Positions 6,975-55,320 are shown, counted from the first letter of the stretch. The stretch is 64,000 bases of DNA from Dehalococcoidia bacterium (GCA_040902535.1 JBBDXD010000001.1:145161-209160), one strand, 5' to 3'. The notes: generated by a model from the sequence alone, not told the origin. Made by a program: numbers and translations.

Positions 6975-7886
6975 ATGCCACTTCACCCTCTCGCGCGACG
7001 GATCACCTTCGGCGCGGCCCTGGCTGCCGCGGGCCTCACCATGCTGTTCGCCCGCCCCGACGCGGCGCTCGCGCACCACATCGAGACCGATGAAGACTAC
7101 GCCTGCGATGGCTGGACCGTGCGCGCCGAGTACATCGGCGGCAATGGCGACCGCATGGTCGTCGTCGACGTCACCGTCAACGGCGAACACATCGACGAGA
7201 CGTTCATCTTCGACGACGACCATCTCGGACATCAGGACTACTACCTGCTCTACGAACGCAGCGGCACCGGATCGCTGCAGACCTCCGGCACGATCACGAT
7301 GTACGAGCGGGGACGCCGCGGCTACACGATCGAGGCCGGCACCGACGGCACCGACATCGATCTCGTCTGTGCGGCGCCCACGTCGACAGCGACGAAGACC
7401 GCCACTGCGACTCCCAGCACGACGAACACGCCCGTGCCGACGGCTACGAGCACGCCAGAGCCCGAAGACACGCCGGAGACCGAAGGCAGCGTAACGCCGC
7501 TACCGGCGGAGACGGCGACGCCCGACATCACCGTGAACTCGACGATCACGCCGCTGCCGACGGAGCCGCCGACCGAAGCTACGCAGACGCCCGTGGGTAC
7601 GTCGTCGCGGAATCGCACGACAAGCACGGCGACCGCGACTGCGGCAATCGCCACGCCGACCTTTACCGACGAAGTTCAGGGCGGCACGCCGCCGGCGCAG
7701 CCATCCGCGCCCGACGCCCCCTCCGGCGGCGAAGGCGACACGCCGGAAACGGGCACGAGCTTCCCGGACGCCGGCGAGGGCGGCATGGACGGCGTCTCGT
7801 TCATCGTCGCGATGCTCGGATTCGGTCTCGTGATCGTCGGCATCGCGACGGTCGTCGGCGGCCGCTCACTGCGGCCGAGGAAGTAG
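6975..7886 (+). CDS. secreted hypothetical protein: signal peptide, about 100-aa Cys-containing domain, Thr/Pro-rich linker, C-terminal TM anchor with basic tail
   Basis: Signal-peptide-like N-terminus MPLHPLARRITFGAALAAAGLTMLFARPDAALA and a long TATKTATATPSTTNTPVPTATSTPEPEDTPETE low-complexity region. The C-terminus is GEGGMDGVSFIVAMLGFGLVIVGIATVVGGRSLRPRK. Confidence 0.6.
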   Translation: MPLHPLARRITFGAALAAAGLTMLFARPDAALAHHIETDEDYACDGWTVRAEYIGGNGDRMVVVDVTVNGEHIDETFIFDDDHLGHQDYYLLYERSGTGSLQTSGTITMYERGRRGYTIEAGTDGTDIDLVCAAPTSTATKTATATPSTTNTPVPTATSTPEPEDTPETEGSVTPLPAETATPDITVNSTITPLPTEPPTEATQTPVGTSSRNRTTSTATATAAIATPTFTDEVQGGTPPAQPSAPDAPSGGEGDTPETGTSFPDAGEGGMDGVSFIVAMLGFGLVIVGIATVVGGRSLRPRK

Positions 7887-7952
7887 ATTTTCGCCTCGCG
7901 AATTACTATGCCCCCGTTTGTCCGTCTGCCGCACTTCCGGTAGCGTTCGCGC

Positions 7953-8492
7953 ATGGATCTGCGCTACCGGCGAGCAATCCATCACGACCTCGAAGCGATC
8001 GCCGCGCTGCACGCGGATAGCTGGCGTCGGACCTATCGCGGCATGTACAGCGACGCCTACCTGGACGGCGACCTGGTTGCCGACCGCCGCACGGTCTGGG
8101 AGGAGCGGCTGCTCGACGGCGATCCGCGACGCGTGCTGCTCGTCGCCGAGACCGACGGCGCATTCGCGGGTTTCGTCTGCGCGTACGGCGCCGCAGACGA
8201 GACCTGGGGCTCGCTCATCGACAACCTGCACGTCGCGCGCGCGTATCAGCGCCTCGGTTTAGGCCGCGCCTTAATGCACAGCGCCGCCTCGGAACTGAAT
8301 GAACGGCATGCAGAGAGCCCCGTCCATCTCTGGGCGCTCGAAGGAAACACGAACGCCAGGACGTTCTACGAAGCGCTCGGGGGCCGCAACGAAAGCGTCG
8401 CACCGCACGAGCGGCCAGGCGGCGGCATGATTCAAGTGTGCCGGTATGTCTGGGAACGTCCCGCATCGCTCATAGCGGCATGCCGGCCCTGA
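7953..8492 (+). CDS. GNAT family N-acetyltransferase
   Basis: LHVARAYQRLGLGRALMHSAASEL (acetyl-CoA-binding motif A) followed by RTFYEALGG (motif B). Confidence 0.8.
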   Translation: MDLRYRRAIHHDLEAIAALHADSWRRTYRGMYSDAYLDGDLVADRRTVWEERLLDGDPRRVLLVAETDGAFAGFVCAYGAADETWGSLIDNLHVARAYQRLGLGRALMHSAASELNERHAESPVHLWALEGNTNARTFYEALGGRNESVAPHERPGGGMIQVCRYVWERPASLIAACRP

Positions 8493-8504
8493 ACAGCGTC
8501 GCGA

Positions 8505-10586
8505 TCAGCGCCGCCCCCGCACGGGCGCCCGCCGCTGGTATCGTCCCGGCCGCGGACGTGGCTTCGCTCCGAGCGACCCGTACGACGATTGCGCAAACTC
8601 GTGCAGCGCCGATTCGTCGTCGAGCATGGCCTTCCGCAGTTCGATGATCTGGTCGCGCACCAACGCCGCACGCTCGAACTCGAGCGACTTCGCCGCGGTC
8701 TTCATCTGCGATTCCAGATCCTTGACCATGCGCGCCATCTCGTCCTTCGGCATGGACTTGACGGTGTACTCCGCCTTCTCCTCGGCGACCTTCTTGATCT
8801 GGTCGGTGATGTCGCGGATCGCCTTCGTGATACCCTCCGGCGAAATGCCGCGCTCTTCGTTGTGCGAACGCTGGATCGCGCGACGGCGCTCTGTCTCGCT
8901 GATCGCGAACTTCATCGAGGCGGTCATGTTGTCGGCGTACATGATCACAGTGCCCTCGACGTGGCGTGACGCGCGACCGATCGTCTGCACCAGCGATCCG
9001 CCTGACCGGAGATAGCCCTCCTTGTCGGCGTCGATGATGCAGACGAGGCTCACTTCCGGCAAATCCAGACCTTCCCGCAACAGGTTGATCCCCACGACCA
9101 CGTCGTACACGCCGAGGCGCAGGTCGCGGAGGATCTCCACGCGTTCGAGCGTGTCGATCTCGCTGTGCAGGTAATGCGTGCGGACGCCCATCTCCTGGAG
9201 ATAGTCGGCCAGATCCTCCGCCATGCGCTTCGTCAGCGTCGTGACAAGCACGCGCTGTTGCTTCTCGATGCGCTTCCTCACCTCATCGAGCAGATCGTCG
9301 ATCTGCCCGCGCGTCGGCTTCACCTGGATCACCGGATCGAGCAGACCCGTCGGACGAATCACCTGCTCGACGACCTGGCTGCTATTGCCGAGTTCGTACG
9401 GCCCCGGCGTCGCCGAGACGAACACCACCTGGTTGAGGTGGTTCTCTAACTCCTCAAAGTTCAGCGGCCGGTTGTCGAGCGCCGACGGCAGCCGGAACCC
9501 GAAGTCGACGAGCGTCTGCTTCCGCGCGTAGTCGCCGTGGAACATGCCCCGCGCCTGCGGAATCGCGATGTGCGACTCGTCCACGAACATCAGGAAGTCG
9601 TCCGGGAAGTAATCGAGCAGTGTCCACGGCGTGCTCCCCGCGGCGCGTCGCGCCAAATGCCGGCTGTAGTTCTCGATACCGGAGCAGTAGCCCGCCTCGC
9701 GCATCGTCTCCAGGTCGTAGTTCGTGCGCTCTTCGAGCCTCGCCGCCTCCAGGACCTTGCCCTGACCGCGCAGATCCTGCAGCCGCTCACGTAGCTCGAG
9801 CTCGATGTCCTGGATCGCTTCGTCGAGCTTGTCCTTCGACGTCACGAAGTGCTTCGCCGGATAGATATCGATCTCCTCCCGGTCGGCGAGCAGTTCGCCC
9901 GTCAGCGGGTCGATCTCGATGATCCGCTCCACTTCGTCGCCGAAGAAGTCGATGCGTACCGCCAGCTCTTCGTACGAGGGCTGGATCGTGATGCTGTCGC
10001 CGCGCAGCCGGAACTTCCCGCGCACCAGGTTCATGTCGTTGCGCTCGTACTGCATGTCGACGAACCGCCGCATGATGCGAGAACGGTCGAACTTCTCACC
10101 TTTGCGCAGCTTGACGACGAAGCTCTGGTACTCCTCCGGCTCGCCGAGACCGTAGATGCACGACACCGACGCCACGATAAGCACGTCGCGCCGCTCAAAG
10201 AGCGCACGCGTCGCCGCATGCCGCAGCTTGTCGATCTCCTGGTTGATATCGGCGTCCTTGGCGATGTAGGTGTCGGTGCGCGGTATGTACGCCTCTGGCT
10301 GGTAATAGTCGTAGTACGACACGAAATACTCGACGGCGTTCTCCGGGAAGTGCTCCTTGAACTCCGAGCAGAGCTGCGCCGCCAGCGTCCGGTTCGGCGC
10401 CAGCACGAGCGTCGGGCGCTGATACTGCGCTACGATGTTTGCCATGGTGAACGTCTTGCCCGAGCCCGTGACACCCATGAGCGTCTGGGAGCGGTCGCCC
10501 CGCCCCAGGCCGGACACGAGCTGTTCGATGGCCTGCGGCTGGTCGCCGGTGGGCAGGAAGTCGGATACGAGTTTGAAGTCAGGCAT
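8505..10586 (-). CDS. uvrB: excinuclease ABC subunit B
   Basis: [27 protein letters not shown]...[15 protein letters not shown], helicase motifs, beta-hairpin region and C-terminal UVR domain ([17 protein letters not shown]). The track ORF extends 12 codons upstream; ATG at 10586 fits UvrB N-termini. Confidence 0.95.
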
Positions 10587-10708
10587 GGACGGTCCCGGAA
10601 ATCTCAGGCGGAATCTGATCAAGTCTAACAGAGCACCGACGAGGCCCGGCTGTGCGTCCGGGCCTCATCTTGTCGCGCTACTGTCAGCGTGATGTCAGCA
10701 GTCGACCG

Positions 10709-11278
10709 CTAGACGCTCCGCCGGATCACAAAAGCACCCGCAGCCGCGAAGATTGCACCGAGGCCGAGCGCCGCGGCGAACAGGACGACGCTGCCCGAAC
10801 CACCGTCACTTCCCGTGCCTGTCCCGGTGCTTGGCGCCGCCACAGGTGGACCGGGCGTGCCCGCCACCGCCGGCGTCGCCGCCGCGGCCGTCGTCGGAGT
10901 CGCGACGCCCGCTCCCGCGGTCGGTTCGCCGCCCGCTGCGGCGTTCACGGTCACCGTGCCGCTCATCACTTGTCCGTGGACCTCGCAGGAATAATTGAAG
11001 GTGCCCGCTGTATTGAACGTCTGGCTGAACGATCCGGTCGCCTGTTGCGGACTTTCAAATGAGCCGTCGCTGGCCGTGACCGTGTGTGGGTTCACGCCTG
11101 ACCAGTTCCAGGTCACTGTGCCGCCGACGTCGATCGTGACCGCCGCGGGACTAAAGACGTTATCGCCCACGCTGACCGTCGCCGATTCCTGTGCCCTCGC
11201 CGCCGGTGGCCCGGACAGCAAGATCGTGCCCGCCAGCGCTAGCGCGATTACCGTGATGATGAGCCGCATCATGTACAT
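10709..11278 (-). CDS. membrane-anchored cupredoxin (plastocyanin/azurin-like blue copper protein)
   Basis: Signal peptide and cupredoxin fold with Cu ligands (TWNWSGVNPHTV ... FNYSCEVHGQVMSG). Followed by an Ala/Pro/Thr/Gly linker and C-terminal [26 protein letters not shown]. Confidence 0.8.
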   Translation of the reverse strand: MYMMRLIITVIALALAGTILLSGPPAARAQESATVSVGDNVFSPAAVTIDVGGTVTWNWSGVNPHTVTASDGSFESPQQATGSFSQTFNTAGTFNYSCEVHGQVMSGTVTVNAAAGGEPTAGAGVATPTTAAAATPAVAGTPGPPVAAPSTGTGTGSDGGSGSVVLFAAALGLGAIFAAAGAFVIRRSV

Positions 11279-11295
11279 GATCCCTTCCCTGGGTA

Positions 11296-11315
11296 GCTTC
11301 GCGTATTGGCGAAGC
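11296..11315 (-). promoter_or_regulatory. 7-bp stem hairpin/palindrome in the 5' leader of the cupredoxin gene
   Basis: GCTTCGC-gtattg-GCGAAGC lies immediately upstream of the RBS-like GGGAAGGGA and the ATG at 11278 on the reverse strand. Confidence 0.25.
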
Positions 11316-11493
11316 GCCTATCCTCGCAGCAAGGCCGCCGCACGACGCAGGTCGCGCGACGGTCATCGCCTCCATGATCTACGTTTGCCCGGCTCGTTCC
11401 GATGCAAAGGATGCATTGCGTTCGCGTCCCGGGGCATAACGTTTCGCGGGCGTGCCGTTGCGCTGATTCGCGCATTTGTTCGACAATGGTGGC

Positions 11494-12765
11494 ATGCAGG
11501 TCTACGCCGTCCACGAGCTGACGACCTACCTCCGTGAGCTGTTCGAGACCGATCCGCACCTCAGCGACATCTGGATCTCGGGCGAGGTCTCGAACGTCAG
11601 CCGTCCTGCGTCCGGGCACGTCTACTTCACCCTGAAGGACGGCGATGCGCAGGTCCGGGCCGTCTTCTTCGCCCGTCGCGGACAGCCGTCCAACGCGACG
11701 TCCCGCATGGTCGAGAACGGACACGCGGTCGTCGCGCATGGCCGCGTTTCGCTCTACGAACAGCGGGGCGATTTGCAGCTGTACGTTGATTTCGTCCAGC
11801 CCGAAGGGGTCGGCGCGCTCCAAATGGAGTTCGAGCGCCTCAAGGCGCAGCTCGCGGAGCAGGGCTTGTTCGACGAATCCCGGAAGCGACCCCTGCCGCG
11901 CTTCCCGCGCAAGATCGGCGTCGTCACGTCGCCTTCGGGCGCCGTGTTTCATGACATCTGCCATGTCCTCGAACGGCGCTGGCCGCTGGCGGAAGTCGTG
12001 CTGGCCCCCACGCCCGTACAGGGCCCCGACGCGGCGGCAGGCATCATCGGCGGTATCCAGCAACTCAACGCGCGCGGCGACATCGACGTCATCATCGCGG
12101 GCCGCGGCGGCGGCTCGTACGAGGAACTGTGGGCGTTCAACGAGGAGCCGGTCGTGCGCGCCGTCTTCGCGACCGGCGTTCCCATCGTATCGGCGGTCGG
12201 GCATGAGACAGATACGACGATCAGCGACTTCGTCGCCGACCGGCGTGCGCCGACGCCGTCGGCCGCCGCTGAGATCGTCGCGCCGGACCGCATCGACGTG
12301 TCAGTACGGATCGGCATCGCCGCGGGGACCATGGAGTCGATCCTGAGTCAGCAGATCCGCATCAAGCAGGAGAGCGTGCGCACAGCGGCGCAGTCGATGG
12401 ACCGTCGCGTGCCGGATGTCTACACGCAACGTCAGCACATCGACGAACTGGCGCGGCGCGGACAACAGGCGATGGAGCATGCGCATCGCGGCGCAGTCAG
12501 CAACGTCGGCGGCTGTGTCTGGCGGCTCCGCGCGCTCGACCCTTTCGCCACGCTCGAACGCGGCTACGCGATCGTGCAGCGTGGCGGGGCGATCGTCGCG
12601 AGCGTGGCGGGCGTCAAAGCCGGCGACGCGCTCGATATTCGCGTGAAGGACGGTGGCATCGGCGCGCATGTCGATGGCGGCGCTCCGGCGGCGCGCAGAC
12701 GGCCCCGCCGCTCTGTGCCGGAGGCGCAGGCGCCGCTCTTCAGCATGCCGGAAGAGCGCGCTTAG
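11494..12765 (+). CDS. xseA: exodeoxyribonuclease VII large subunit
   Basis: MQVYAVHELTTYLRELFETDPHLSDIWISGEVSNVSRPASGHVYFTLKD (OB-fold N-terminus) and GRGGGSYEELWAFNEEPVVRAVFATGVPIVSAVGHETDTTISDFVAD. An alternative TTG start lies at 11476. Confidence 0.9.
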   Translation: MQVYAVHELTTYLRELFETDPHLSDIWISGEVSNVSRPASGHVYFTLKDGDAQVRAVFFARRGQPSNATSRMVENGHAVVAHGRVSLYEQRGDLQLYVDFVQPEGVGALQMEFERLKAQLAEQGLFDESRKRPLPRFPRKIGVVTSPSGAVFHDICHVLERRWPLAEVVLAPTPVQGPDAAAGIIGGIQQLNARGDIDVIIAGRGGGSYEELWAFNEEPVVRAVFATGVPIVSAVGHETDTTISDFVADRRAPTPSAAAEIVAPDRIDVSVRIGIAAGTMESILSQQIRIKQESVRTAAQSMDRRVPDVYTQRQHIDELARRGQQAMEHAHRGAVSNVGGCVWRLRALDPFATLERGYAIVQRGGAIVASVAGVKAGDALDIRVKDGGIGAHVDGGAPAARRRPRRSVPEAQAPLFSMPEERA

Positions 12766-12773
12766 GAGGACCG

Positions 12774-13082
12774 ATGGCAAAGGAACCAAAGGCCGAGACG
12801 TTCGAGCACTTGTACGCGCGGCTGGAAGAGTCGGTCGGCAAGCTCGAGCAAGGCGGCCTCACACTCGAGCAGGCGATCGCCCTGTACGAGGAGGGCATGA
12901 CGCTCGCGCGCAGATGCCAGGACATGCTCGACGCGGCGGAACAGAAGATCACCAAATTAAAAGAGTCATTCGCACCTGTGCCGGAGCGCCTGAACGGCCG
13001 CACAATAGGCGACGAGGTCGCCGGATACGAGTACGTTCCCGAGGAAGACGCCGAACCGCCGGCCGACGGGCCTTCCGAATAA
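12774..13082 (+). CDS. xseB: exodeoxyribonuclease VII small subunit
   Basis: FEHLYARLEESVGKLEQGGLTLEQAIALYEEGMTLARRCQDMLDAAEQKI, immediately downstream of xseA. Confidence 0.85.
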   Translation: MAKEPKAETFEHLYARLEESVGKLEQGGLTLEQAIALYEEGMTLARRCQDMLDAAEQKITKLKESFAPVPERLNGRTIGDEVAGYEYVPEEDAEPPADGPSE

Positions 13083-13141
13083 TCCGGTTGCGTGCCACGG
13101 CGGCCTCGGGCTAGGGTGAACCGGCAGAAAGGGAGATCGTC

Positions 13142-13972
13142 GTGCTGCGCATCGGCTGGTTCTCAACGGGACGCGGCGAGGGATCGCAAAAGCTCCTGCG
13201 CGCCGCCGTCGAGGCGATCACAGAGGGCCGGCTCGACGCCGAGATCGCGTTCGTCTTCTCGAATCGCGAACCCGGTCAATTCGAGGCCACCGACACCTTC
13301 TTCAGCCAGGTCAACGCGTGCGGCATCCCGCTCATCACGCTCTCCGACGCGCGCTTCCGCCGCGAGAACGGCGGCGAAGTGGCCCGCGTGGGCCAGCCGC
13401 TCCCTGCTTGGCGCACGGACTACGACCGCCGCGTCGCAGAACTGCTGGATCCGCACGGCTGCGACCTCGGCATGCTCGCCGGCTACATGCGGATCACGAC
13501 CGAGCCTCTCTTCTCGTGGCGGCCGCTGCTCAATATGCATCCCGCCGCACCCGGCCAACCTGCGGGCACGTGGCAGGATGTGACGTGGAAGTTGATCGAG
13601 CAGCGTGTGGACCACGGTGGCGTGCGCATCCACCTCACGACGGAAGCGCTCGACGAAGGCACGATCGCCACCTACTGCACGTACCCCTTGCGGGGCGCGA
13701 CGATCGACCTGCTCTGGCGCGGGATCGAGCACCGCAGCGTCGACGAGATACGCGCGTCGGACGGCGAGGCGAATCCGCTCTTCCAGGAGATCCGCCGCCG
13801 CGGTTCGTCGCGCGAACTGCCGCTCGTCGTCGAAACGCTGCGCGCATTCGCCGATGGCCGCCTCCGCATCGAAGGGGATCGCGTCATGATGGCCGATGAC
13901 ACCAAAGTTGTCGGCGGCTACGATCTGACGCCGGAGATCGAAGGTTCGCTCGCAAAGGCCGCTCTCGCCTGA
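13142..13972 (+). CDS. formyl-transferase-domain protein (PurN/Fmt-like fold)
   Basis: GTG start. LRIGWFSTGRGEGSQKLLRAAVEAITEGRLDAEIAFVFSNRE plus the LNMHPAAPGQPAG segment resemble the formyltransferase N-domain (NIHPSLLP region); there is a C-terminal extension. Confidence 0.6.
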   Translation: MLRIGWFSTGRGEGSQKLLRAAVEAITEGRLDAEIAFVFSNREPGQFEATDTFFSQVNACGIPLITLSDARFRRENGGEVARVGQPLPAWRTDYDRRVAELLDPHGCDLGMLAGYMRITTEPLFSWRPLLNMHPAAPGQPAGTWQDVTWKLIEQRVDHGGVRIHLTTEALDEGTIATYCTYPLRGATIDLLWRGIEHRSVDEIRASDGEANPLFQEIRRRGSSRELPLVVETLRAFADGRLRIEGDRVMMADDTKVVGGYDLTPEIEGSLAKAALA

Positions 13973-13973
13973 T

Positions 13974-14387
13974 TTGTTGCTTTCCGTAATTGACGGCCTT
14001 ATGGCCACCGGTTACGATGTCGCGGCCATGAGCAATCCCGTGTGCGCATCTTGCGACGCCATCGTCGACACCAGCGACAACTTCTGCCGCCGTTGCGGCG
14101 TTGCCGTCGAGCAGACGCTGCCGGCGGTGCGGTCGAATATGTCGACGACGATCTGGCAGCCGGCGGTCTCGCCGGTCGTCAAGGGTGCGGCCGTGATGGC
14201 GGCGGGCACCGTCGGGCAGTTCCTGTTCCGGCGTGCCGTTAGCACGTTGCTCAGTGGCGGCAGATCGCGCAAGGCGGGCGCGATTCGAGTCGGACGGGGA
14301 CGCGGCGACGACGGGATGGTCGACGAAGCGCAGATCATCACCGAAACGATCATGATGCGGCGCGTGCGGGTGCGCCGCCAGGCCTGA
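13974..14387 (+). CDS. hypothetical zinc-ribbon protein
   Basis: CASCDAIVDTSDNFCRRCG (CxxC-x9-CxxC) followed by a hydrophobic and then Arg-rich tail; TTG start, start uncertain. Confidence 0.3.
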   Translation: MLLSVIDGLMATGYDVAAMSNPVCASCDAIVDTSDNFCRRCGVAVEQTLPAVRSNMSTTIWQPAVSPVVKGAAVMAAGTVGQFLFRRAVSTLLSGGRSRKAGAIRVGRGRGDDGMVDEAQIITETIMMRRVRVRRQA

Positions 14388-14454
14388 CGCCGCAGCTCTT
14401 CGCTACGCACATCAGTCGATCCCGGGGCGGGCAGGACACCAGGACCGGTCGCCG

Positions 14455-16377
14455 ATGCGAGCGCGGCTCCTCGCGGTTGTTGCATCTATCATAGTCGGCA
14501 TTGCGGCGTTCGCTGCCCTCGCGACGCCCGACGCATCCGCATACGAGCACGTCCGCAACGGCGGCTTCGAACTCGGCACTGAAGGATGGTCGGCCGGATA
14601 TGGCGCCACGATCACGTCAGCGCAGCATCCCGAAGTGGCGCCCGCCGACGGCACATCGAGCGGCAAAGTCATGCTCGGGGGAACCCGCTTCGAGCTCCGG
14701 CCAGCGATGAGCGGTCCTGTCGACGCCGGTACGTACGAATTCTCCGCTCAGGTGCTGACGTCCTACGCCGGGAGTGTTCGGGCACAGGTGCACGGTTCAG
14801 GCTTCGAGGGCTCAACGATGGCGAACGCCCAGCCCGGCGTGTGGACGCCCCTCCGCATGGCCGTCAATGCCACCGCGGCTGGCGAACTGTCCATTTCGAT
14901 CAGCGGCTCCGGCGCGCCCGGCGATGTTCTGTACGTCGACGCCGTGCGACTGATCGGCGCACCGCCTGTCACGCTCACGCCGACGGCGGCGCCTGCTCTC
15001 GCGGCCACGACGCCGGTCCCAAGTGCGACAGGACTTGCCTCTCCGACGGCGACGCCCACGACGGCACGGGCCGATGCGATAGCAGCGCATCTTCGGAACG
15101 CATCGTTCGAGGAGATTGGCGACGACGGACTTCCGTTCGCCTGGGCCAAGTTCGGCGGGACGCTCTCCGTCGCGCCGGACCGCGCGCGGTCGGGACGGCA
15201 CGCCGCGCGGGTCGACAGCAACACCGCCTCGACGAAGTGGCTGTATCAGACCGTGCTCGTCGAACCCGGAGCGACGTACGCGTTTGAGGCGTGGATCTGG
15301 CACGACGATCCAGCCGTCGCGGCCGCGTTTCTGCGCGTCTCCTGGTACGCGAGCGCCGACGGCGGCGGTGAGTCGATCACCAGCGTCGATTCCACCACGC
15401 GGCTTGATACGCCCATCTCCGGCTATCGCCATCTGACCACCGGCGCAATCAACGCGCCCGCAAACGCACGGACCGCAAGACTGCGCGTCATGCTCGCGCC
15501 TTCATCGGGGGCACCGGCGGCCATCTTCGTCGACGATGCGGCATTCTCGTCGGCAACACCACTGGCGCCGGTTGTAGCAGCGCCCGTGCCGGACGACGAC
15601 GCCGGTGCTGAATCACTGAGCGCCGGCAGTGCCCGTCCGTCACGCAGCACCGGCAGCGCGGCGTCCGGCGCGGGCGTCTTCGCTTCAGCCCATTCGTCCG
15701 GCGCCGATGCTCCGACACTCGTCATCAACGAAGTGCTGTTCGATGCGGACACCGCCGGCGCCGACGCGGAGGGCGAGTGGGTCGAGATCTACAACCCCGG
15801 CGGCCACGACGTTTCGCTCGCCGGTTGGACGCTCAGGGACAACGCCCGCGCCTCATCGGTCCCCGACATCATCATCCCTGCAGGTGATTTCGCCGTCGTG
15901 GCCGCTTCCGATAGCTTTCTGGCGACGTACCCCGACTTCCTAGGCGTCGTCGCGTGGCTGGACGGTCGCCTGGGCAACGGCCTGGGTAACGACGGTGACA
16001 GCCTCGAACTGATCTCCCCGACTGGCACAGTCGTCGACGCGATCTCCTGGGGCGACGAGTCGTCGATCCTCGAACCGCCGATCGACGCCGTGCCGGCCGG
16101 CCATTCGATCGAGCGCCGCATGGCCGGCGTCGATACGAATGCCGCCGAAGACTTCGTCGACAACAACGATCCGTCACCGGGACGTCCGTTTGACGCTGAT
16201 GCGACCAATCCGAAGCCGCTAAGTCGCACGACGACGGTCGAGGTGCTGGAGGCAACGGGTGCGCAGGACTTCGACTGGGTGCCGTGGGCGCTCGTCGCCG
16301 TGTCCGGCGTCGCGCTGGCCGGCGCCGTCGCGTGGCGCGCGATCGAGGCTGTCCGCGCGCGGTCGCGGCCCGCGTGA
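14455..16377 (+). CDS. secreted protein with two CBM_4_9-like jelly-roll modules, a lamin-tail domain (LTD) and a C-terminal TM anchor
   Basis: Signal peptide. NGGFELGTEGW and ASFEEIGDDGLPFAW module starts. LTD signature LVINEVLFDADTAGADAEGEWVEIYNPGGHDVSLAGWTLRD...IIIPAGDFAVVAAS...GLGNDGDSLELISPTGTVVDAISWG. C-terminal WVPWALVAVSGVALAGAVAWRAIEAVRARSRPA. Confidence 0.75.
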   Translation: MRARLLAVVASIIVGIAAFAALATPDASAYEHVRNGGFELGTEGWSAGYGATITSAQHPEVAPADGTSSGKVMLGGTRFELRPAMSGPVDAGTYEFSAQVLTSYAGSVRAQVHGSGFEGSTMANAQPGVWTPLRMAVNATAAGELSISISGSGAPGDVLYVDAVRLIGAPPVTLTPTAAPALAATTPVPSATGLASPTATPTTARADAIAAHLRNASFEEIGDDGLPFAWAKFGGTLSVAPDRARSGRHAARVDSNTASTKWLYQTVLVEPGATYAFEAWIWHDDPAVAAAFLRVSWYASADGGGESITSVDSTTRLDTPISGYRHLTTGAINAPANARTARLRVMLAPSSGAPAAIFVDDAAFSSATPLAPVVAAPVPDDDAGAESLSAGSARPSRSTGSAASGAGVFASAHSSGADAPTLVINEVLFDADTAGADAEGEWVEIYNPGGHDVSLAGWTLRDNARASSVPDIIIPAGDFAVVAASDSFLATYPDFLGVVAWLDGRLGNGLGNDGDSLELISPTGTVVDAISWGDESSILEPPIDAVPAGHSIERRMAGVDTNAAEDFVDNNDPSPGRPFDADATNPKPLSRTTTVEVLEATGAQDFDWVPWALVAVSGVALAGAVAWRAIEAVRARSRPA

Positions 16378-28309: not shown

Positions 28310-29059
28310 TCAATCATCTTCGGGCCTATTCGGATTGAAGAGCTGCGGACCCAGGTACAGGTCATCGAAATAGACATCGGCTACCGCCGCACCGTCCGCG
28401 GCGCCCTCCCGATCCCGCACTGCCAGCGAAAGCTCGAGGTACTCCCAGCCGATGGGATCCCAACCCAGCCGCGACCGGATCGCCTCCGGCACGGGATAGG
28501 AGAAGTACGTCCATTGCCCCGTCGAAGGTTCATCTCGGCTCAGGAAGACGAACGCCTCCGTCGGCGACGTGAACGGCTCCCGTGCCGCGCCTCCGAGCAT
28601 GAAATGCACTTCGTGGAGTTCACTGCCGTCCGGATGCCCGCCGCCGCGGATCGATACGACGAACTCTACGTACGGCGACATCCCCGGCGACTCCCAGCTA
28701 TCGACGTAGTAATAGCCCGAGACGAACTCCGGGAACGTATCACTGACGATGCGCTGCGTCGCGCCGGCGATCCTCGGCCCGGGCGCCGCATCGCCAGCCG
28801 GCAGTTCCAGCCGCAGGCTCAGCGTCCCCGTCCCGGGTTTGAGATTGGTGACGCGAAACTGCCGGTCCGGCGATGCGGCGAACCACGGATCGGCGCCTTG
28901 CTCGAAGCCGGCGTTCTGCAGGACGTTCGGCTGGACCGCCGGCGTCGGCGCCGCGATGACGGGCTGCTCAGCGAAGACGCCGCACGCCGCACAAGCGAAT
29001 GCCCCCAGTCCCGCAATCGCGAGCGCACCACGCTGTCCGAGCCGCCACCTACGCCGCAT
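28310..29059 (-). CDS. secreted hypothetical protein with CBM_4_9-like module
   Basis: Signal/lipobox-like MRRRWRLGQRGALAIAGLGAFACAACG. NAGFEQGADPW jelly-roll module start and a Trp/Tyr-rich C-terminal half. The track ORF starts 50 codons upstream in a low-complexity Arg-rich frame. Confidence 0.55.
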   Translation of the reverse strand: MRRRWRLGQRGALAIAGLGAFACAACGVFAEQPVIAAPTPAVQPNVLQNAGFEQGADPWFAASPDRQFRVTNLKPGTGTLSLRLELPAGDAAPGPRIAGATQRIVSDTFPEFVSGYYYVDSWESPGMSPYVEFVVSIRGGGHPDGSELHEVHFMLGGAAREPFTSPTEAFVFLSRDEPSTGQWTYFSYPVPEAIRSRLGWDPIGWEYLELSLAVRDREGAADGAAVADVYFDDLYLGPQLFNPNRPEDD

Positions 29060-29060
29060 T

Positions 29061-30014
29061 CTAGATCGGCGCCCCGCGTGCGGCGCCTCGCAGCGCGACG
29101 GTCCGAGGTTTCCCTGTCTTGCGGCGCGCGCCCCCGCTCGCGGCCGCGTTCGCGAGCTTCGTTGCACGGCGCGCCCTCGGCGCGCGCTGGCAGTTCGGAC
29201 AATACACACTGCTGCGACCGCCGACCTTGAGGCGCCGCATCACGCCGCCGCACTCGTTCAGGCACGGCTCGCCCTCGCGGCCGTACGCCTTCACGGTCTC
29301 CTGGTTGCGTCCCGGGTCGCCATCGAGGTTCACGTGGTCGCGCAGCGTCGTACCGAGCGAACTGCCGCGCCCTTCGATGCCCATGCGCAGCGCATCGATG
29401 ATGCCGGCGTGGAGGCGCGCGTAGTCGCCGGCGCTGAGCCGATTGGCCGGACGCAAAGGATGGATCTTCGCGTAGTGCAACGCTTCGTCTGTATAGAGAT
29501 TGCCCATGCCGGCGAGTACCGTCTGGTCGAGGATGACCGACTTGATCGGCGCTTTCCGCCTTCCCGCGCGCTGGCGCAGCACCGCCGGCGTAAACTCCGC
29601 CTCGAGCGGCTCCGGCCCGAGCGTCTCCATCACCATCGTCGCATCTTCGACGAGCCACATCGTGCCGAACTTCCGCAGGTCGGTCCACCGCAGCTCGTGT
29701 CCGTCGTCTAGTCCGAAGACGGCGCGTACGTAGTCGTCGGGCGGATCGACGGGGCGGCGATACAGGATGTTGCCGGACATGCGACGGTGGATCACCCAGG
29801 CGCGCCCGTCATCGAGATCGACGATCAGGTACTTGCCGCGCCGCCGCAACCCGGCGATCCGCCGCCCCGTGAGCTGCCTGCAGAACTCCAATGCCGGCAC
29901 GAGCTGCACAAGTTGCGGCGTGTCGGGCGCCACAAAACACGACGTGACGCTGCGCCCGATCACGCGCTGTTCCAGATCACGCCGGACAGTTTCGACTTCG
30001 GGAAGTTCAGGCAT
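29061..30014 (-). CDS. mutM: formamidopyrimidine-DNA glycosylase
   Basis: MPELPEVETVRRDLEQ (catalytic Pro2/Glu3), H2TH, zinc finger CPNCQR, plus a basic C-terminal extension. The 610-aa track ORF is an upstream in-frame shadow; ATG at 30014. Confidence 0.9.
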   Translation of the reverse strand: MPELPEVETVRRDLEQRVIGRSVTSCFVAPDTPQLVQLVPALEFCRQLTGRRIAGLRRRGKYLIVDLDDGRAWVIHRRMSGNILYRRPVDPPDDYVRAVFGLDDGHELRWTDLRKFGTMWLVEDATMVMETLGPEPLEAEFTPAVLRQRAGRRKAPIKSVILDQTVLAGMGNLYTDEALHYAKIHPLRPANRLSAGDYARLHAGIIDALRMGIEGRGSSLGTTLRDHVNLDGDPGRNQETVKAYGREGEPCLNECGGVMRRLKVGGRSSVYCPNCQRAPRARRATKLANAAASGGARRKTGKPRTVALRGAARGAPI

Positions 30015-32079: not shown

Positions 32080-32964
32080 TCATACGTCCGGCGGCTGAAG
32101 TCGCGGCAGATCCCTGCAGTCAAGCGACACGAACGACCCGCTGAAGAACGGCTCCCATTGATCCGCGGCGCCAATGAGCGGCGGCCCGCCATGGAGCAGG
32201 TTCACGCGGTAGAAGTGCCGTCGCGCCGGCACGATGCCGCGCCATTCGAAGACGGTGCCTGACGGCGGGAATGGACCGGCGCCGATGAACGTGCCCGGTG
32301 GAAATCCGTTGTCGAGCAACGGGTTGCGCGGGCTCGCGAATAGCGTCAGATCGATCCACTGCTGCTGCACAGGCCGATCGGGCGTAAGAAACGCGGGTGC
32401 CAGGCGGAAGGTGACCTGCGACGTGCCGTCACCGAAGCAGGCGTACTCACCGATGAACTGGCAGTTCGGCGTCTCGAAGCTGCCGCGTCCCACTTCGCGC
32501 CATTCGTTGCCGAAGCGCGCGTTCAGCCGAAAGTAGTGCGTCTCTGCCGGGATCAGGTTCCACCATCGCGGCACCTGCGTCGTGAGTCCGACCTCCGGCA
32601 CGAACGGCCCCATGCCCAGGAATGTGCCCGGCGCGAAGTTGTTGTTGAAGAGCGAAATATCGATCCAGATCGCGTCCGGCACCGCCCCGAACTTCAGCCG
32701 AAGATCGTCGGTCCCGGGTATTCGGAAGCGTGCCTGTGCGCCGGTGTCTCCGGGGCAGTCGATGCCCGAGACGAAATTATCCGGTGGCGCGCTCTGCGCC
32801 CACGCGCGATCCGCGCCAGCCGGCCCCATGACGGCGGCGCCCAGAAGTACAATGATGGCTGCCAGCGAGGATTGCACCGATACCCTCCCATCGCCCGTTG
32901 CGACACTATCAGTGTGAAGCTGCTCAATTGCGCGTACCTTGGATTCCGCGGCGAGGCGTTGCAA
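32080..32964 (-). CDS. secreted hypothetical protein with an internal tandem duplication
   Basis: Signal-peptide-like SSLAAIIVLLGAAVMGPAGADRAWAQS. Two about 90-aa repeats begin WIDISLFNNNFAPGTFLGMGPF... and WIDLTLFASPRNPLLDNGFPPGTFIGAGPF...; the true start is uncertain. Confidence 0.5.
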   Translation of the reverse strand: MQRLAAESKVRAIEQLHTDSVATGDGRVSVQSSLAAIIVLLGAAVMGPAGADRAWAQSAPPDNFVSGIDCPGDTGAQARFRIPGTDDLRLKFGAVPDAIWIDISLFNNNFAPGTFLGMGPFVPEVGLTTQVPRWWNLIPAETHYFRLNARFGNEWREVGRGSFETPNCQFIGEYACFGDGTSQVTFRLAPAFLTPDRPVQQQWIDLTLFASPRNPLLDNGFPPGTFIGAGPFPPSGTVFEWRGIVPARRHFYRVNLLHGGPPLIGAADQWEPFFSGSFVSLDCRDLPRLQPPDV

Positions 32965-38974: not shown

Positions 38975-40120
38975 CTACTTTCCCGCGACCTTGTAATACA
39001 ACGCCTCGTGCGCGTCCGCGACGTGCTCCCACGAGTACTCGCGCTTCGCGTACGCCAGCGACGCAGCGCGCCGCTCCTCGACGAGCGCCGGCGACGCAAT
39101 GAGTTCGCACAGGCGCTCACGCAGCGACTCCACCGGGCGCCCGATCTCGAAGCTCAGGCCCGCTTCGCCGACCGTCTCGAGATTCTCCGCGATGTTGCTG
39201 ACGAGCACGCAGTTCCCGTAGCCCATCGCTTCGACGAGCGACAGCGCGGTGCCTTCGATCTCCGACGGCTGCACGTAGGCGTACGCGTGCGCGAACAGCT
39301 CGCGCGTGGCCTCGCCGTAGACCGGGCCGAGCAGTCGCACGCGTGCGTCCTTCGCTGCGCGCCCTTCCAGCGAGCGCCAGTACGAAGCGTCGCCGGAGCC
39401 ATCGCCCACGATGACGCACTGCATGTCTGCCTCCACTCCGGCGAAGGCGTCGATCAGGTGATGCACGCCCTTCTCCGGCGTGATCCGCCCGACGAACAAC
39501 ACGTAGCCGCCGCCGCGCAGCCCATAGGTGTCGAGTGCGGCGCGTCCATCAACCTCGCGCGTGTCGACGCCGTGCGCGATGTAGACCGGCTCGCGGCCGA
39601 ACTTCTCTCGATAGTAGCGCGCGACCTCGCGCGAGTCGGTGATACAGGCGCCCGATGCACGGATCGCGAACAGCGACGACCGCTCAAGAAGCGACTTCGC
39701 GATGCGGCCCCACTTGCGGCGTCGCCAGTCCATGCCGTCGACGGAGATGACGGTGCCTTTGCCAGCCAGGCGCAGCAGCGGCAGCCACGGTGCGTTGCCG
39801 ACGCCAAAGACGTGCACAACGTCGGAGCGGTGAAACAGCGCGTGTACGCCGGACAGCGCTGTGTGGCTCGGCGTATCGACGTGCTTTTCGCGGATCGACG
39901 GGAGCAGCACGCGCCGCATGCCCCGGTGTACGACGGCGCCGGTCGCGGAGTTGTGCGCGCGGCAGTACGCTGTCACGCGGTGTCCGCGCTCGACCATGCG
40001 CGCGCCGACCTCCTCAGCGACGGTCTCGAGACCGCCGTAGTTCGCGGGGACGCCGCGCATGCCGAGCATGGCGATGCGCAACGGCCGCACCGCCGCCTGC
40101 GCGTCTGTGCTGTGAGTCAT
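38975..40120 (-). CDS. glycosyltransferase family 4 (GT-B)
   Basis: LRIAMLGMRGVPANYGGLETVAEEVGARMVERGH N-domain. C-terminal EX7E-like region (GEAGLSFE, ...SEIEGTALSLVEAMGYGNCVLVSN). Confidence 0.8.
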   Translation of the reverse strand: MTHSTDAQAAVRPLRIAMLGMRGVPANYGGLETVAEEVGARMVERGHRVTAYCRAHNSATGAVVHRGMRRVLLPSIREKHVDTPSHTALSGVHALFHRSDVVHVFGVGNAPWLPLLRLAGKGTVISVDGMDWRRRKWGRIAKSLLERSSLFAIRASGACITDSREVARYYREKFGREPVYIAHGVDTREVDGRAALDTYGLRGGGYVLFVGRITPEKGVHHLIDAFAGVEADMQCVIVGDGSGDASYWRSLEGRAAKDARVRLLGPVYGEATRELFAHAYAYVQPSEIEGTALSLVEAMGYGNCVLVSNIAENLETVGEAGLSFEIGRPVESLRERLCELIASPALVEERRAASLAYAKREYSWEHVADAHEALYYKVAGK

Positions 40121-40123
40121 GGA

Positions 40124-41149
40124 TCAGAACACCCGGGGATATGGTTTGAGGGACTCGTGTACTTCCGTCAAGAGCTGCATCCAGCGCAGGTTGTAGTAAC
40201 GCGGGTGCAAAAGTTCCTGGCTGTCGATCTCACCCAGATGCTCGAGAATGCTGTCCACCGAATCCTTCACCGTGCGCTGCGGCGTGAAGCCCGTAGCCTC
40301 CGTCAGCCGCGCGTTCGACGTGCGATAGTTGCGGATGCGCCCGGTCGCCGGCGTCGGCGTCAATTCGATCGCGCCGACGATCGGCTCGACTGCTTCCGCG
40401 ACGACTTCGGCGAGTTCCTTGATCTGATAGTTCTCCTGCACGACGTTGAACACGCGCCCCGCGACGTGCTCGGCGGGCGCATCGAGCGCGGCGATGTGCG
40501 CCGCGGCGACGTCCTGCACATCGACCAACGGCCGCCACATGAATCCGCCTTCGTGCAGGAAAAGCTGGCGTTTGAGCAGCGCATCCTTCAAGAACGTGTT
40601 CACGACCAGGTCGTAGCGCATGCGCCGGCTGTACCCGCCGACCGTGCCCTGCCGGAGTAACACGACTTCGAGACCGCGCTTGCCCGCTTCGATGAGGCGC
40701 CGCTCCGCTTCGTACTTCGACTCCGAGTACGGGCCGATCGGCTGCACCGGCGCGTCCTCATCGAGGACGTCATCGCCGGCGAGACCGTCGTAGATCGAGC
40801 CGCTGGAGCCGAAGCTCAGGCGCTGTACGCCGGTGCGGATGCAGGCGTTCGCCAACTCTTCCGTGGCGATCGTGTTCATCTGCCAGTTGGCATTGGGATC
40901 GAGGTCCGCGGTCGGGTCGTTCGACAACCCGGCAAGGTGCACGACGGCATCCACGCCGTGGAGGTCTTCGTCGCGCATCTCGCGCACGTCGCGGGAGAGC
41001 AGATCGACGTTCGGCAGTGCATCGAGCCCGCAGGTGCCCCAGAAGAACCGGTCGAGCACGCGCACGCGGTCGCCGCGGTCGACAAGCTGCGCGACCAGCT
41101 CAACGCCCACGTAGCCAGCGCCGCCCGTCACGCAGATCAACTTGCTCAC
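40124..41149 (-). CDS. NAD-dependent sugar epimerase/dehydratase (SDR extended family)
   Basis: LICVTGGAGYVGVELVAQLV (Rossmann TGGAGxxG), YSESKYEAE (YxxxK). Confidence 0.85.
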   Translation of the reverse strand: MSKLICVTGGAGYVGVELVAQLVDRGDRVRVLDRFFWGTCGLDALPNVDLLSRDVREMRDEDLHGVDAVVHLAGLSNDPTADLDPNANWQMNTIATEELANACIRTGVQRLSFGSSGSIYDGLAGDDVLDEDAPVQPIGPYSESKYEAERRLIEAGKRGLEVVLLRQGTVGGYSRRMRYDLVVNTFLKDALLKRQLFLHEGGFMWRPLVDVQDVAAAHIAALDAPAEHVAGRVFNVVQENYQIKELAEVVAEAVEPIVGAIELTPTPATGRIRNYRTSNARLTEATGFTPQRTVKDSVDSILEHLGEIDSQELLHPRYYNLRWMQLLTEVHESLKPYPRVF

Positions 41150-42417
41150 GTCGCGACCCCCTGGTTCGATGTCACCAACTGCGGTTCCCGGCTCAGCGCT
41201 CGCTGGTAGATGGCAATGAGCTGGTCGTAGTGCCTTTGCGCACTGAATCTCTCTTCGATGAACGAACGTGCGTTGACGCCCATTGCACGTGCGCGGGGCG
41301 GATCGCCGGCCAATTCGTCGATGGCGCCTGCGAGTGCGGGGGTATCCCCGGCGCGGAAGACCAGGCCGGTCTCGCCGTGCTTCACGAGTTCCGGCAGACC
41401 ACCCAGGTCCGAGACGATGACCGCCCTCCCTCGCGCGGCCGCTTCCATGACACTGAGCGGTGCGTTCTCATACCACTCCGAAGGCGTGACCGTAAAGAGC
41501 GATTCGTCAAGAAGCGCCATTAGCCCCGCCTGCGGCAGGTGTCCTGTGAACCGCACGTTCGGCGCTCCGGCCTCCTGAGCGTATCGCTCGAGAGCGGCGC
41601 GGTCCTCGCCATCGCCCGCGATCACCAGTTCGCATGACTCGGCCGCCGAGCTTCGGGCAAACGCGTCGATTAGCGTGCGGATGCCCTTCACGCGCTCCAA
41701 CCGCCCGACGTACATGATGCGTCGTTTCGGCTCGATGTCCGGCATGTCGCGGGGTTCGATGAAGTTCGGCAGGTAGGTGATCTTCGCCGCATCCATCCCG
41801 AACTCCGCCGCCTTGCCCGCCAGAAACCTGCTCGGCGCGATGAAGCAGGCGACGTTTCGCCGGTACAGCCCGAGCGCCGAGTGCAGATATGCCTCCACGG
41901 TGCACAGGACGCTCTTGGCGCGCGAATCTTTCACGCATCCTTGCAGCGTGGCGTTGAAGAACGCGCCGCCTTTGCATCGCTCGCAGGGAGCGCCGTTCGC
42001 ATACAGCGTGTACGCGGGGCAAATCAACTTGTAGTCGTGCATCGTCAGCACGGCGGGAATGCGGTGCTTCGCGAGCACCCGCAGGACCGAAGGTGAAAGC
42101 TGATGGTAGATGTTGTGCAGATGCGCGACGTCCGGCCTCGTGGCGCGGATCAAGGCGTCGAGCTTCCGCGCCGCCTCTCGCGAGTACAGCATGCGGCCGG
42201 CCGCTGCGATGTTGGCAGAGATACCGGCGTCTTCGTCGCGCAGCTCGATGTTCGAGACGAAGTATCGCGCGTACGGCGTCGCCTCGTTCTCCGGATGCTG
42301 CATCGAGAACGGGATCACGTCGTGGCCGTGGCGCGCGAGCAACTCCGTCTGTGCGAAGTAGACGGTCTCGGCGCCGCCGCGACGGTAGTGGAACTTGTTG
42401 ACGTTCAGTACTCTCAT
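41146..42417 (-). CDS. glycosyltransferase family 4 (GT-B)
   Basis: MRVLNVNKFHYRRGGAETVYF..., C-terminal ...PSEWYENAPLSVMEAAARGRAVIVSDLGGLPELV. Confidence 0.8.
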   Translation of the reverse strand: MRVLNVNKFHYRRGGAETVYFAQTELLARHGHDVIPFSMQHPENEATPYARYFVSNIELRDEDAGISANIAAAGRMLYSREAARKLDALIRATRPDVAHLHNIYHQLSPSVLRVLAKHRIPAVLTMHDYKLICPAYTLYANGAPCERCKGGAFFNATLQGCVKDSRAKSVLCTVEAYLHSALGLYRRNVACFIAPSRFLAGKAAEFGMDAAKITYLPNFIEPRDMPDIEPKRRIMYVGRLERVKGIRTLIDAFARSSAAESCELVIAGDGEDRAALERYAQEAGAPNVRFTGHLPQAGLMALLDESLFTVTPSEWYENAPLSVMEAAARGRAVIVSDLGGLPELVKHGETGLVFRAGDTPALAGAIDELAGDPPRARAMGVNARSFIEERFSAQRHYDQLIAIYQRALSREPQLVTSNQGVAT

Positions 42418-45043: not shown

Positions 45044-45063
45044 GCGGGATATTGCTCCACGTC

Positions 45064-46224: not shown

Positions 46225-46308
46225 GTGTGAACTCCCCTTCTGTGCGCGTCGCTCGCCCTCAGCCGTCCTTGCCCGCGTCCCCGACGGCCAGCTTCGCCAT
46301 GGCCTTCT

Positions 46309-49846: not shown

Positions 49847-49849
49847 GAA

Positions 49850-52581: not shown

Positions 52582-52608
52582 GAGCTGCCTTCCTCACGCT
52601 GAGCGGGT

Positions 52609-54117: not shown

Positions 54118-54181
54118 CTACGACCCGCCCCACGCGAATACAGTGCCCTCAATGGTGGTCGCTCCTTGTTCTGCGGCCTCC

Positions 54182-54886: not shown

Positions 54887-55320
54887 AGACACCCACCCAA
54901 ACGCCTGGCGTCCCGTCCTGGGCTGCCGGCAGCACTCAACGCGCAATGAGGATCTACCCGGGGCGGAGTATGGTTGATAAACATAACAGCCTTGACAAGG
55001 CCAATCAATAGAACTCCAACCACCGTGTGAACTCCAATGTCAAGGCGCCCACGGGCTGTTGGTCCCGGACGCCTCTTCCCTGCTAGTAACGCCTTCGGAG
55101 GGTGCTCGTTACGGGCGGGCATGCAATTCCCCGGTCAGCCTCCGAAGGACGCGGCGGAAGCTCGCCGCCACGCTTCCCGTTGTACTCGGTATGCGTGCCT
55201 GCCAACAGGGGTGGCGGGGTTAATAACACGCAAACAACACGTTACGGAGGCGCGTTCTTGACGTTTGAGCGCCGCAAGGTCTAAGACGCCGTCATCCCGA
55301 TCCCGTGCGCACGCGGACAG

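Follow-up and report, generated by a model that had tools for sequence, protein, structure and literature searches.

The C-terminal tails of two unrelated exported proteins encoded in a MAG of the class Dehalococcoidia (Chloroflexota) look like off-consensus variants of the known LPXTG signal, and together with a third protein encoded close by they do not represent a new shared sorting system. The reading we favor, with a probability of roughly 0.6, is that a 303-aa exported protein (P1) and a cupredoxin (P2) carry sortase-type signals with off-consensus pentapeptides, that the third protein (P3, with CBM_4_9-type domains and a lamin-tail domain) is held by a permanent membrane anchor, and that the three tails are not one module. 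The analysis covered a 64-kb stretch of DNA, referred to below as the window, and orthologues of each protein in related genomes.

Architecture and genomic setting of the three proteins

The three open reading frames and their C-termini matched a preliminary description of this DNA exactly, and its domain calls for P2 and P3 were reproduced with Pfam (Table 1). A Pfam search with P1 gave no match. P1 is a small protein with a beta-sandwich fold, in which an N-terminal His is invariant, and the AlphaFold model of P1 places a helix at residues 273-295. P2 is identical to an NCBI protein of a Dehalococcoidia MAG, for which NCBI sets the start at Met4, giving a product of 186 aa. N-terminal signal peptides, also described earlier for all three proteins, were recognized by inspection from their AxA sites; they were judged by eye to be of the Sec type, and the hydrophobic N-termini were confirmed by a hydrophobicity scan. 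At the other end, the reported tripartite architecture is real in P1, P2, and P3, each of which combines its signal peptide with a hydrophobic helix near the C-terminus and basic residues after it. The Thr/Pro/Ala-rich spacers of the preliminary description were borne out to the extent that each protein has a Thr/Pro linker, but that of P3 is internal, and no low-complexity linker lies immediately upstream of the P3 helix.

When the whole window was scanned for products that have an N-terminal hydrophobic leader and, at the C-terminus, a helix followed by basic residues, P1, P2, and P3 were the only real genes recovered. With about 50 genes in the window, three such proteins amount to a mild enrichment, and the repeated appearance of such tails on unrelated cargo within a span of 10 kb had been taken as a hint of a common system. 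This recurrence is explained by gene order. The genes lie on different strands, with uvrB, xseAB, and a formyltransferase gene between them, and each is embedded in housekeeping synteny kept in relatives: P1 and P2 flank uvrB in a conserved arrangement, and the order xseA-P3-rluB is conserved as well. The proximity of the three genes is therefore positional and does not reflect a functional cluster; they form no island or dedicated locus.

Table 1. Genes and protein parts in the window, with coordinates counted from its first nucleotide
Feature	Coordinates	Strand	Description or basis
P1, exported protein, 303 aa	6975..7886	+	open reading frame
P1 signal peptide, residues 1-33	6975-7073	+	by inspection, AxA site ALA/HH (...AALA/HH)
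P1 Ig-like beta-sandwich, residues 34-133		+	
P1 Thr/Pro linker, about residues 134-262		+	followed by C-terminal sorting-signal-like tail
P1 pentapeptide FPDAG, residues 263-267	7761..7775	+	LPXTG-like; conservation in orthologues
P1 spacer EGGMDGVS, 8 residues	7776-7799	+	hydrophilic
P1 hydrophobic helix FIVAMLGFGLVIVGIATVVGG, 21 residues	7800-7862	+	hydrophobicity scan
P1 basic tail RSLRPRK	7863-7883	+	sequence
P2, cupredoxin, 189 aa	10709..11278	-	PF00127 and PF13473 matches
P2 signal peptide, residues 1-29	11192-11278	-	by inspection, AxA site ARA/QE (...AARA/QE)
P2 copper-binding domain, about residues 33-112		-	followed by Ala/Thr/Pro/Gly linker and C-terminal tail
P2 pentapeptide APSTG, residues 148-152	10823..10837	-	LPXTG-like, Ala at position 1
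P2 Gly-rich spacer TGTGSDGGSGS, 11 residues	10790-10822	-	hydrophilic
P2 hydrophobic helix, 22 residues	10724-10789	-	sequence
P2 Arg-rich tail RRSV	10712-10723	-	sequence
P3, exported protein, 640 aa	14455..16377	+	CBM_4_9-type domains and lamin-tail domain (LTD); PF00932, PF02018
P3 signal peptide	14455-14541	+	by inspection, AxA site ASA/YE
P3 Trp-flanked helix WVPWALVAVSGVALAGAVAW	16276-16335	+	predicted C-terminal membrane anchor
P3 cytoplasmic basic tail RAIEAVRARSRPA, 13 residues	16336-16374	+	predicted C-terminal membrane anchor

LPXTG-like pentapeptides of P1 and P2

The earlier statement that none of the proteins has LPXTG is literally correct, but it overlooked the LPXTG-like FPDAG of P1 and APSTG of P2, both conserved in orthologues. 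In the P1 family, P264 and G267 are invariant (21/21 orthologue tails, 18 full-length orthologues) and stand at a constant distance from the helix in all 21, while the Thr/Pro linker around the motif varies in length and sequence to the point that it cannot be aligned. The consensus for the family is [LF]Px[TAS]GxG, in shorter form [LF]Px[TA]GxG, and several orthologues have a canonical LPNTG, LPSTG, or LPDTG. A frameshifted P1 homologue in L084 ends in FPDTG, a spacer, a helix, and REKR. The helix of the P1 family is partly conserved too, with the pattern G..GL..V.A.GLR in orthologue tails.

Comparison of six P2 orthologues showed that V, A, P, T, G, and the G at +2 are invariant in the motif region; a seventh orthologue, which shares only 37% identity and whose linker is unrelated, retains VIAPRTGSG, and APxTGxG is thus present in 7/7. 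At the equivalent site distant cupredoxins have LPHTG, LPSTG, LPRTG, or LAATG, and three of them match the LPXTG_anchor model TIGR01167 at 13-18 bits, one above its cut-off of 15.9 bits. The window encodes two unrelated cargo proteins with an LPXTG-like motif within 64 kb, and the relative L085 has the same pair, a P1-type protein with LPSAG and a P2-type protein with APRTG.

P1 and P2 resemble substrates of the LPXTG/sortase system (classes A, E, and F; TIGR01167) in having an N-terminal signal peptide, a pentapeptide near the C-terminus with invariant Pro at position 2, invariant Gly at position 5, and Thr or Ala at position 4, a spacer of 8-11 hydrophilic residues, a helix about 21 residues long, an Arg-rich tail, and orthologues with canonical LPxTG, some of them recognized by TIGR01167. 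LPXTG signals typically have a spacer that separates the motif from the helix, in contrast to the signals of intramembrane enzymes, which are without one (Haft 2023, bioRxiv 10.1101/2023.06.07.544157). The differences are that the Leu of position 1 is replaced by Phe in P1 and by Ala in the whole P2 family, that P1 has Ala at position 4, that the tails of P1 and P2 fall below the TIGR01167 cut-off, and that P1 and P2 come from a Chloroflexota MAG and not from the Firmicutes or Actinobacteria. Ala at position 1 of P2, and Phe at position 1 and Ala at position 4 of P1, also deviate from the specificities of the characterized sortase classes A-E (PMC5148588). In S. aureus, LPxAG is found on two cell-wall-anchored proteins that are listed beside LPxTG proteins (PMC3436756). 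The unnamed motif class proposed in the preliminary description gives way to a known one: the [LF]Px[TA]G of the P1 family and the APxTG of the P2 family, each with the typical hydrophilic spacer, are probably of the LPXTG/sortase type.

By analogy with that system, P1 and P2 would be exported by the Sec machinery via their signal peptides and retained in the membrane by the helix and the positively charged tail. A sortase, that is, a membrane-bound cysteine transpeptidase, would then cleave the motif after position 4 (T or A), in front of the G, and transfer the protein to a cell-wall precursor or another nucleophile of the envelope, so that the folded domain would be exposed on an extended Thr/Pro stalk, which is probably glycosylated. 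Some members of the Dehalococcoidia are without peptidoglycan, and the acceptor for P1 and P2 is therefore uncertain.

The Trp-flanked helix of P3

The tail of P3 differs in kind from those of P1 and P2, contrary to the single shared C-terminal module suggested earlier. More than 40 full-length P3 orthologues were found. Among the 37 compared, W608, W611, W627, R628, and R636 are nearly invariant, the tail consensus is WLPWA..A.....L.....WR..........R.R, and no xPxTG is conserved upstream of the helix. A motif in front of the helix is thus conserved in the P1 and P2 families but has no counterpart in that of P3. The sequence of P3 suggests a type I membrane protein whose anchor is permanent and unprocessed. 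Like C-terminally anchored type I proteins, which are a topology class and not a defined family, P3 consists of an exported ectodomain of several domains, a single helix flanked by Trp, and a basic cytoplasmic tail longer than the tails of P1 and P2, and its orthologues conserve all of these; P1 and P2 differ from this class in their conserved pentapeptides, which argue for more than a simple anchor.

The conserved WLPW, located directly at the helix start, recalls signals that abut the helix and are cut within the membrane, from which P1 and P2 differ by the presence of a spacer. However, WLPW is not one of the named motifs of such signals, all of which are absent from P1, P2, and P3, and in the available sequence it is confined to its own orthologous family, with no other cargo. 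No open reading frame besides P3 has W[LV]PW together with a helix and basic tail at its C-terminus in the window, in L004-L007, or in L084 and L085; the sole other W[LV]PW match in the window, at 35765, is without a helix.

Profile scores, the sortase search, and alternative readings

None of P1, P2, and P3 reached the cut-off of any curated CTERM or LPXTG model. PEP-CTERM/exosortase, PGF-CTERM/archaeosortase, GlyGly-CTERM/rhombosortase, and MYXO-CTERM/myxosortase signals are similar to the tails studied here in their succession of motif, helix, and Arg cluster and in their Thr/Pro-rich upstream regions. Sub-threshold matches to CTERM models were seen on P2 only, with GVDTG_CTERM (18.5 bits) and GPS-CTERM (13.6 bits). 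The reported absence of PEP-CTERM and GlyGly-CTERM motifs was thus confirmed at the level of both motifs and models. TIGR01167 gave no match to the P1 and P2 tails themselves. Within the P1 family it matched 5/21 tails at E<=1, the LPXTG_double model matched 1/21, and the L084 homologue gave a weak TIGR01167 alignment of 10.5 bits. When, as a control, the P1 tail was rewritten with a perfect LPDTG, it scored only 9.2 bits. TIGR01167 is therefore insensitive to tails of the P1 lineage, and the sub-cut-off scores of P1 and P2 are accordingly weaker as counter-evidence.

An open reading frame with the sortase TLxTC signature was found neither within the 64-kb window nor in the roughly 20-kb neighborhoods of orthologues. 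The positive control for the motif and sortase scan was a pair from a member of the Patescibacteria (L022), where a frame ending in LAATG, a helix, and KK adjoins one with the TLxTC signature.

These negative results are what would be expected if all three proteins were plain, unprocessed type I C-terminal anchors, the P1 and P2 pentapeptides serving as a hinge or in glycosylation or recognition. Tails below every curated sorting-domain cut-off are consistent with this possibility, as is the conserved helix pattern of the P1 family, which a retained helix could explain. A conserved motif in front of the helix, however, is predicted for a sorting signal and not for a plain anchor. Pro and Gly keep a fixed distance to the helix (21/21) in P1, and APxTGxG is kept (7/7) in P2, next to linkers that cannot be aligned; textbook LPXTG occurs at the same site in P1 orthologues and P2 homologues; and spacer, helix, and Arg tail fit the layout of a sortase signal. 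Plain anchoring, which the preliminary description had held as its fallback, suits P3, but the conserved pentapeptides of P1 and P2 point to a sorting signal, and we regard plain anchoring of all three proteins as a serious but unlikely alternative.

More speculative, and distinctly unlikely in our judgment, is a departure from known specificities: either a sortase or sortase-like enzyme of this lineage with an unusually relaxed or shifted preference for [L/F/A]-P-x-[T/A]-G-x-G, including a fixed APxTG subclass of the signal on a family of cupredoxins, or an intramembrane sorting enzyme for which the W-L-P-W...W-R of P3 would be the signal.

We also considered that the P2 tail might be a member or sister of the recently curated NF058571 GVDTG-CTERM, handled by the enzyme of that system and apart from P1. 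GVDTG_CTERM is the top NCBIfam match for P2 (18.5 bits) and four orthologues (18.4-24.8 bits with P2 included), the alignment covers profile positions 7-44 of 44, and in P2 as in this family a motif whose last residues are (D)TG precedes a spacer rich in Gly, after which come the helix and the RR tail; the P1 and P3 tails gave no match. Yet every score is below the cut-off of 29 bits, and P2 has Ala-Pro in place of the signature Gly-Val. With its pentapeptide destroyed, the P2 tail still scored 16.6 bits (16.6-17.5 across the family), and scores rose to 29.6-30.6 bits when GVDTG was written into P2-family tails. Since the score survives loss of the motif, the match mostly reflects the composition of the Gly-rich spacer, helix, and RR, not the signature. 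GVDTG was not described as a sorting signal anywhere in the literature searched, and we consider this assignment very improbable.

That one uncharacterized system, with a shared motif outside the named classes, sorts all three tails is hardly credible: the gross architecture is common to them and in P3 a LEATG lies about as far from the helix (LEASG, IQASG, LAGSG, or LSGSG in its nearest relatives), but for P3 the idea is largely refuted by the comparison of 37 P3-family tails. Only about 9/37 have an [LI]xx[TSA]G-like sequence at that site, position 2 is Glu, Gln, or Ser where characterized sortases require Pro or Ala (PMC5148588), the conserved part is the helix itself, no NCBIfam CTERM model matches the P3 tail, and P1 and P2 have a motif that falls under the known LPXTG type.

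This takes a candidate "new sorting system" off the list. Degenerate LPXTG signals of the P1 and P2 type are missed both by a motif-literal reading and by current curated HMMs, and the [LF]Px[TA]G and APxTG variants documented here in high-GC Chloroflexota can help both to broaden LPXTG models and to annotate the surface proteins of uncultured monoderm-like lineages. Should a sortase of relaxed specificity exist, it would tether redox proteins, some of which may bind metals, through their long Thr/Pro stalks to an envelope that is chemically poorly known in this class and may be devoid of classical peptidoglycan. Confirmation of a cognate sortase would make the surface-tethered P2 cupredoxin and P1 candidates for extracytoplasmic redox/copper chemistry in this group.

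C-terminal tails of the exported proteins

The preliminary description proposed that three exported proteins, P1, the cupredoxin P2 and P3, share one C-terminal module that might act as a sorting or anchoring signal. Their C-terminal ends as quoted there match the ORF sequences exactly, and by inspection all three carry Sec-type leaders with AxA sites. When we scanned every ORF of the window with coding-like GC3, no further real gene had both a hydrophobic leader and a C-terminal helix with basic tail; three others have apparent signal-peptide-like leaders but lack the helix-basic tail (Table). P1, P2 and P3 share leader, helix and basic tail, but the three tails do not form one module, that of P3 lacking a conserved LPXTG-like motif.

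Table. Features in the window or, where a locus number is given, in loci of other genomes or contigs
Feature	Position	Strand	Description
P1	6975-7886	+	303 aa; no family
Second pentapeptide in P1	7740-7775		TPETG-TS-FPDAG; TG-ending, directly upstream of the P1 motif
P2	10709-11278	-	189 aa; cupredoxin
P3	14455-16377	+	640 aa; CBM_4_9 and lamin-tail domains
P3 stop/called rluB start	16374-16377		4-base overlap
P3 and rluB, L002	4088-6010; 6007-6759		Same overlap
ORF	28310-29209		Leader without helix-basic tail
ORF	32080-32964		Leader without helix-basic tail
Polysaccharide cluster	38975-54946	-	Long same-strand gene cluster for Wzx/Wzy-type surface polysaccharide: several GT4 glycosyltransferases, epimerase, Wzy_C polymerase/ligase, Polysacc_synt flippases, FemAB-like Acetyltransf_6, GNVR chain-length/tyrosine-kinase-type protein, Bac_transf priming transferase
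ORF	55375-57285	-	636 aa; leader; no Pfam family; ~200-residue Thr/Pro/Arg-rich repeat linker; Cys-rich C-terminal domain; no C-terminal helix, unlike P1-P3
Signalling protein	57546-59924	-	GGDEF-GAF-HD (HD-GYP-like); hydrophobic N-terminus; adjoins polysaccharide cluster
Function-unknown protein, L084	10270-11115	-	Ends ...LPATGAATPPDDTGLSYRRFLLLALAAAIGLPSAAWLAKTTLARRSR; adjoins reprolysin-like metalloprotease gene
ORF pair, L022	~11012-13350		Patescibacteria MAG; ORF ending LAATG-helix-KK directly upstream of ORF with sortase TLYTC signature

Conserved pentapeptides in the P1 and P2 families

A word-indexed search with P1 returned a single homologue, whose frameshifted gene, read in the correct frame, ends FPDTGNG-spacer-helix-REKR. 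An exhaustive HMMER search with the N-terminal domain of P1 gave ~22 orthologues; every one of their tails has [LF]Px[TAS]G, mostly with xG after it (LPSAG, LPNTG, LPSTG, LPDTG, FPATG, FPSTG and FPDTG are examples). Pro and Gly of the pentapeptide are shared by all 21 tails compared, and P264 and G267 of P1 are likewise invariant in the full-length alignment, in which the linker offers merely scattered invariant Thr/Val positions and is otherwise unalignable. Scanning metagenomes with a P1 alignment (A5) added seven loci, all in agreement; one of these, an orthologue 75% identical to P1, has the same FPDAGEGG. The LPXTG_anchor model TIGR01167 matches 5 of the 21 tails, and the tail of P1 itself, rewritten with LPDTG, scored just 9.2 bits against it. 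This model is insensitive to tails of this lineage.

Pentapeptide doubling, as seen in P1, is common among its orthologues (PPRTG-NA-FPSTG, PQPTG-RA-FPATG, GDTG-TL-FPDTG), and the NCBIfam model LPXTG_double matches one tail of the family. In L084, the relative with the frameshifted P1 homologue, a function-unknown protein may be a further, third type of cargo bearing such an LPXTG-like tail, although its spacer is long and includes RR.

Five close orthologues of P2 keep V-x-A-P-x-T-G-x-G and the terminal RR, with variable Ala/Thr/Pro linkers. A seventh orthologue, on L085 (GCA_046715925.1), is 37% identical and has a completely different linker; its tail reads VIAPRTGSG, spacer, helix, RRVRR. 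Distant cupredoxins of other phyla have LPHTG, LPSTG, LPRTG or LAATG at the position of the P2 motif, and TIGR01167 matches three of them at 13-18 bits. Metagenome contigs searched with a 10-residue pattern from the P2-family tail alignment (A2) gave 190 stretches, about the rough chance estimate, and none was confirmed by tblastn.

The top NCBIfam model on P2-family tails was NF058571 (GVDTG_CTERM), a recent curated "GVDTG sorting domain" model present in release 20, at 18.4-24.8 bits (cut-off 29). Destroying the pentapeptide lowered the score to 16.6-17.5 bits, and writing in GVDTG raised it to 29.6-30.6 bits. Since most of the score survives loss of the motif, the resemblance lies mostly in the Gly-rich spacer, helix and RR. 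Scores below cut-off and this control together lead us to reject GVDTG-CTERM membership of P2. In the papers searched there was nothing on GVDTG as a sorting signal.

Sortase-type reading of P1 and P2

In LPXTG signals a spacer separates the motif from the helix, and PEP-, PGF- and GlyGly-CTERM signals, which are cut by intramembrane enzymes, have none (Haft 2023, bioRxiv 10.1101/2023.06.07.544157). P1 and P2 fit the sortase layout because both have such a spacer, of 8 and 11 residues, respectively. Characterised sortase classes recognise LPXTG, NPXTN, LPXTA and LAXTG (PMC5148588), and LPxAG is present on two cell-wall-anchored proteins of S. aureus (PMC3436756). FPDAG of P1 and APSTG of P2 differ from these in being off-consensus. 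Judged by spacer layout and known motif range, P1 and P2 would thus be off-consensus members of the LPXTG type, for which we infer cleavage, an enzyme and an acceptor; the earlier suggestion of a recognition motif outside the named classes is not borne out. Position 1 differs between P1 and P2 within one organism (F/A in the window, L/A in L085), hence a single enzyme would need to tolerate L, F and A.

The sortase TLxTC signature was found in no ORF of the window and nowhere in ~1.4 Mb of Chloroflexota loci. As a positive control, the same scan detected sortases beside a LAATG substrate in the Patescibacteria locus L022. Beside P1 and P2 orthologues there was no sortase on the contigs examined, which are short or syntenic. 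No useful paper was found on sortases in Chloroflexota or Dehalococcoidia.

The probable P3 anchor and the gene neighbourhoods

We aligned 37 full-length P3 orthologues, 38-61% identical. Near the C terminus W608, W611, W627, R628 and R636 are near-invariant, and the tail consensus is WLPWA..A.....L.....WR..........R.R. LEATG of P3 corresponds to LEASG, IQASG, LAGSG or LSGSG in the nearest relatives and is lost in most other orthologues, so that [LI]xx[TSA]G occurs at this site in only ~9 of the 37; position 2 is never consistently Pro or Ala. We reject a class-E-like sortase motif, LEATG being unconserved and having Glu at the Pro/Ala position. CTERM models gave no match to the P3 tail, and no other ORF of the window or of close relatives' loci has W[LV]PW, helix and basic tail. 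With its interfacial Trp and positive-inside tail, the P3 C terminus looks like a retained transmembrane anchor. The fallback of plain anchors suits P3, with its conserved Trp-flanked helix, and is less likely for P1 and P2, with their conserved pentapeptide and spacer.

The window has 65-68% G+C. Short contigs (6 kb, 9.7 kb) of the same organism occur in Logan SRR27977660 and GCA_040876665.1, and P2 and P3 are identical to NCBI proteins of a Dehalococcoidia MAG, encoded on a contig of 220,100 bp. The gene order is amidase, P1, GNAT, uvrB, P2, xseA, xseB, formyltransferase, zinc-ribbon protein, P3, rluB, cmk, plsC. Amidase-P1-uvrB is kept in L085, L086, L088 and L090, P1-uvrB-P2 in L085, P2-xseA-xseB-formyltransferase in the contig carrying P0006, and xseA...P3-rluB in L004-L007 and L087. 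Scanning genome contigs with the P3 alignment yielded only four true orthologous loci (L004-L007), with neither P1 nor P2 near P3. From these conserved neighbourhoods we conclude that P1, P2 and P3 are single-copy, lineage-wide genes within housekeeping synteny and form no sorting locus; their clustering within 10 kb, earlier taken to hint at a shared system, loses that meaning.

P3-rluB adjacency is kept in relatives, and the stop/start overlap suggests that this surface protein is co-transcribed with a housekeeping pseudouridine synthase.

Taken together, the original observation is confirmed in part and its interpretation supported in part: the outcome is motif variants of probable LPXTG type on P1 and P2, and what looks like one ordinary anchor on P3.
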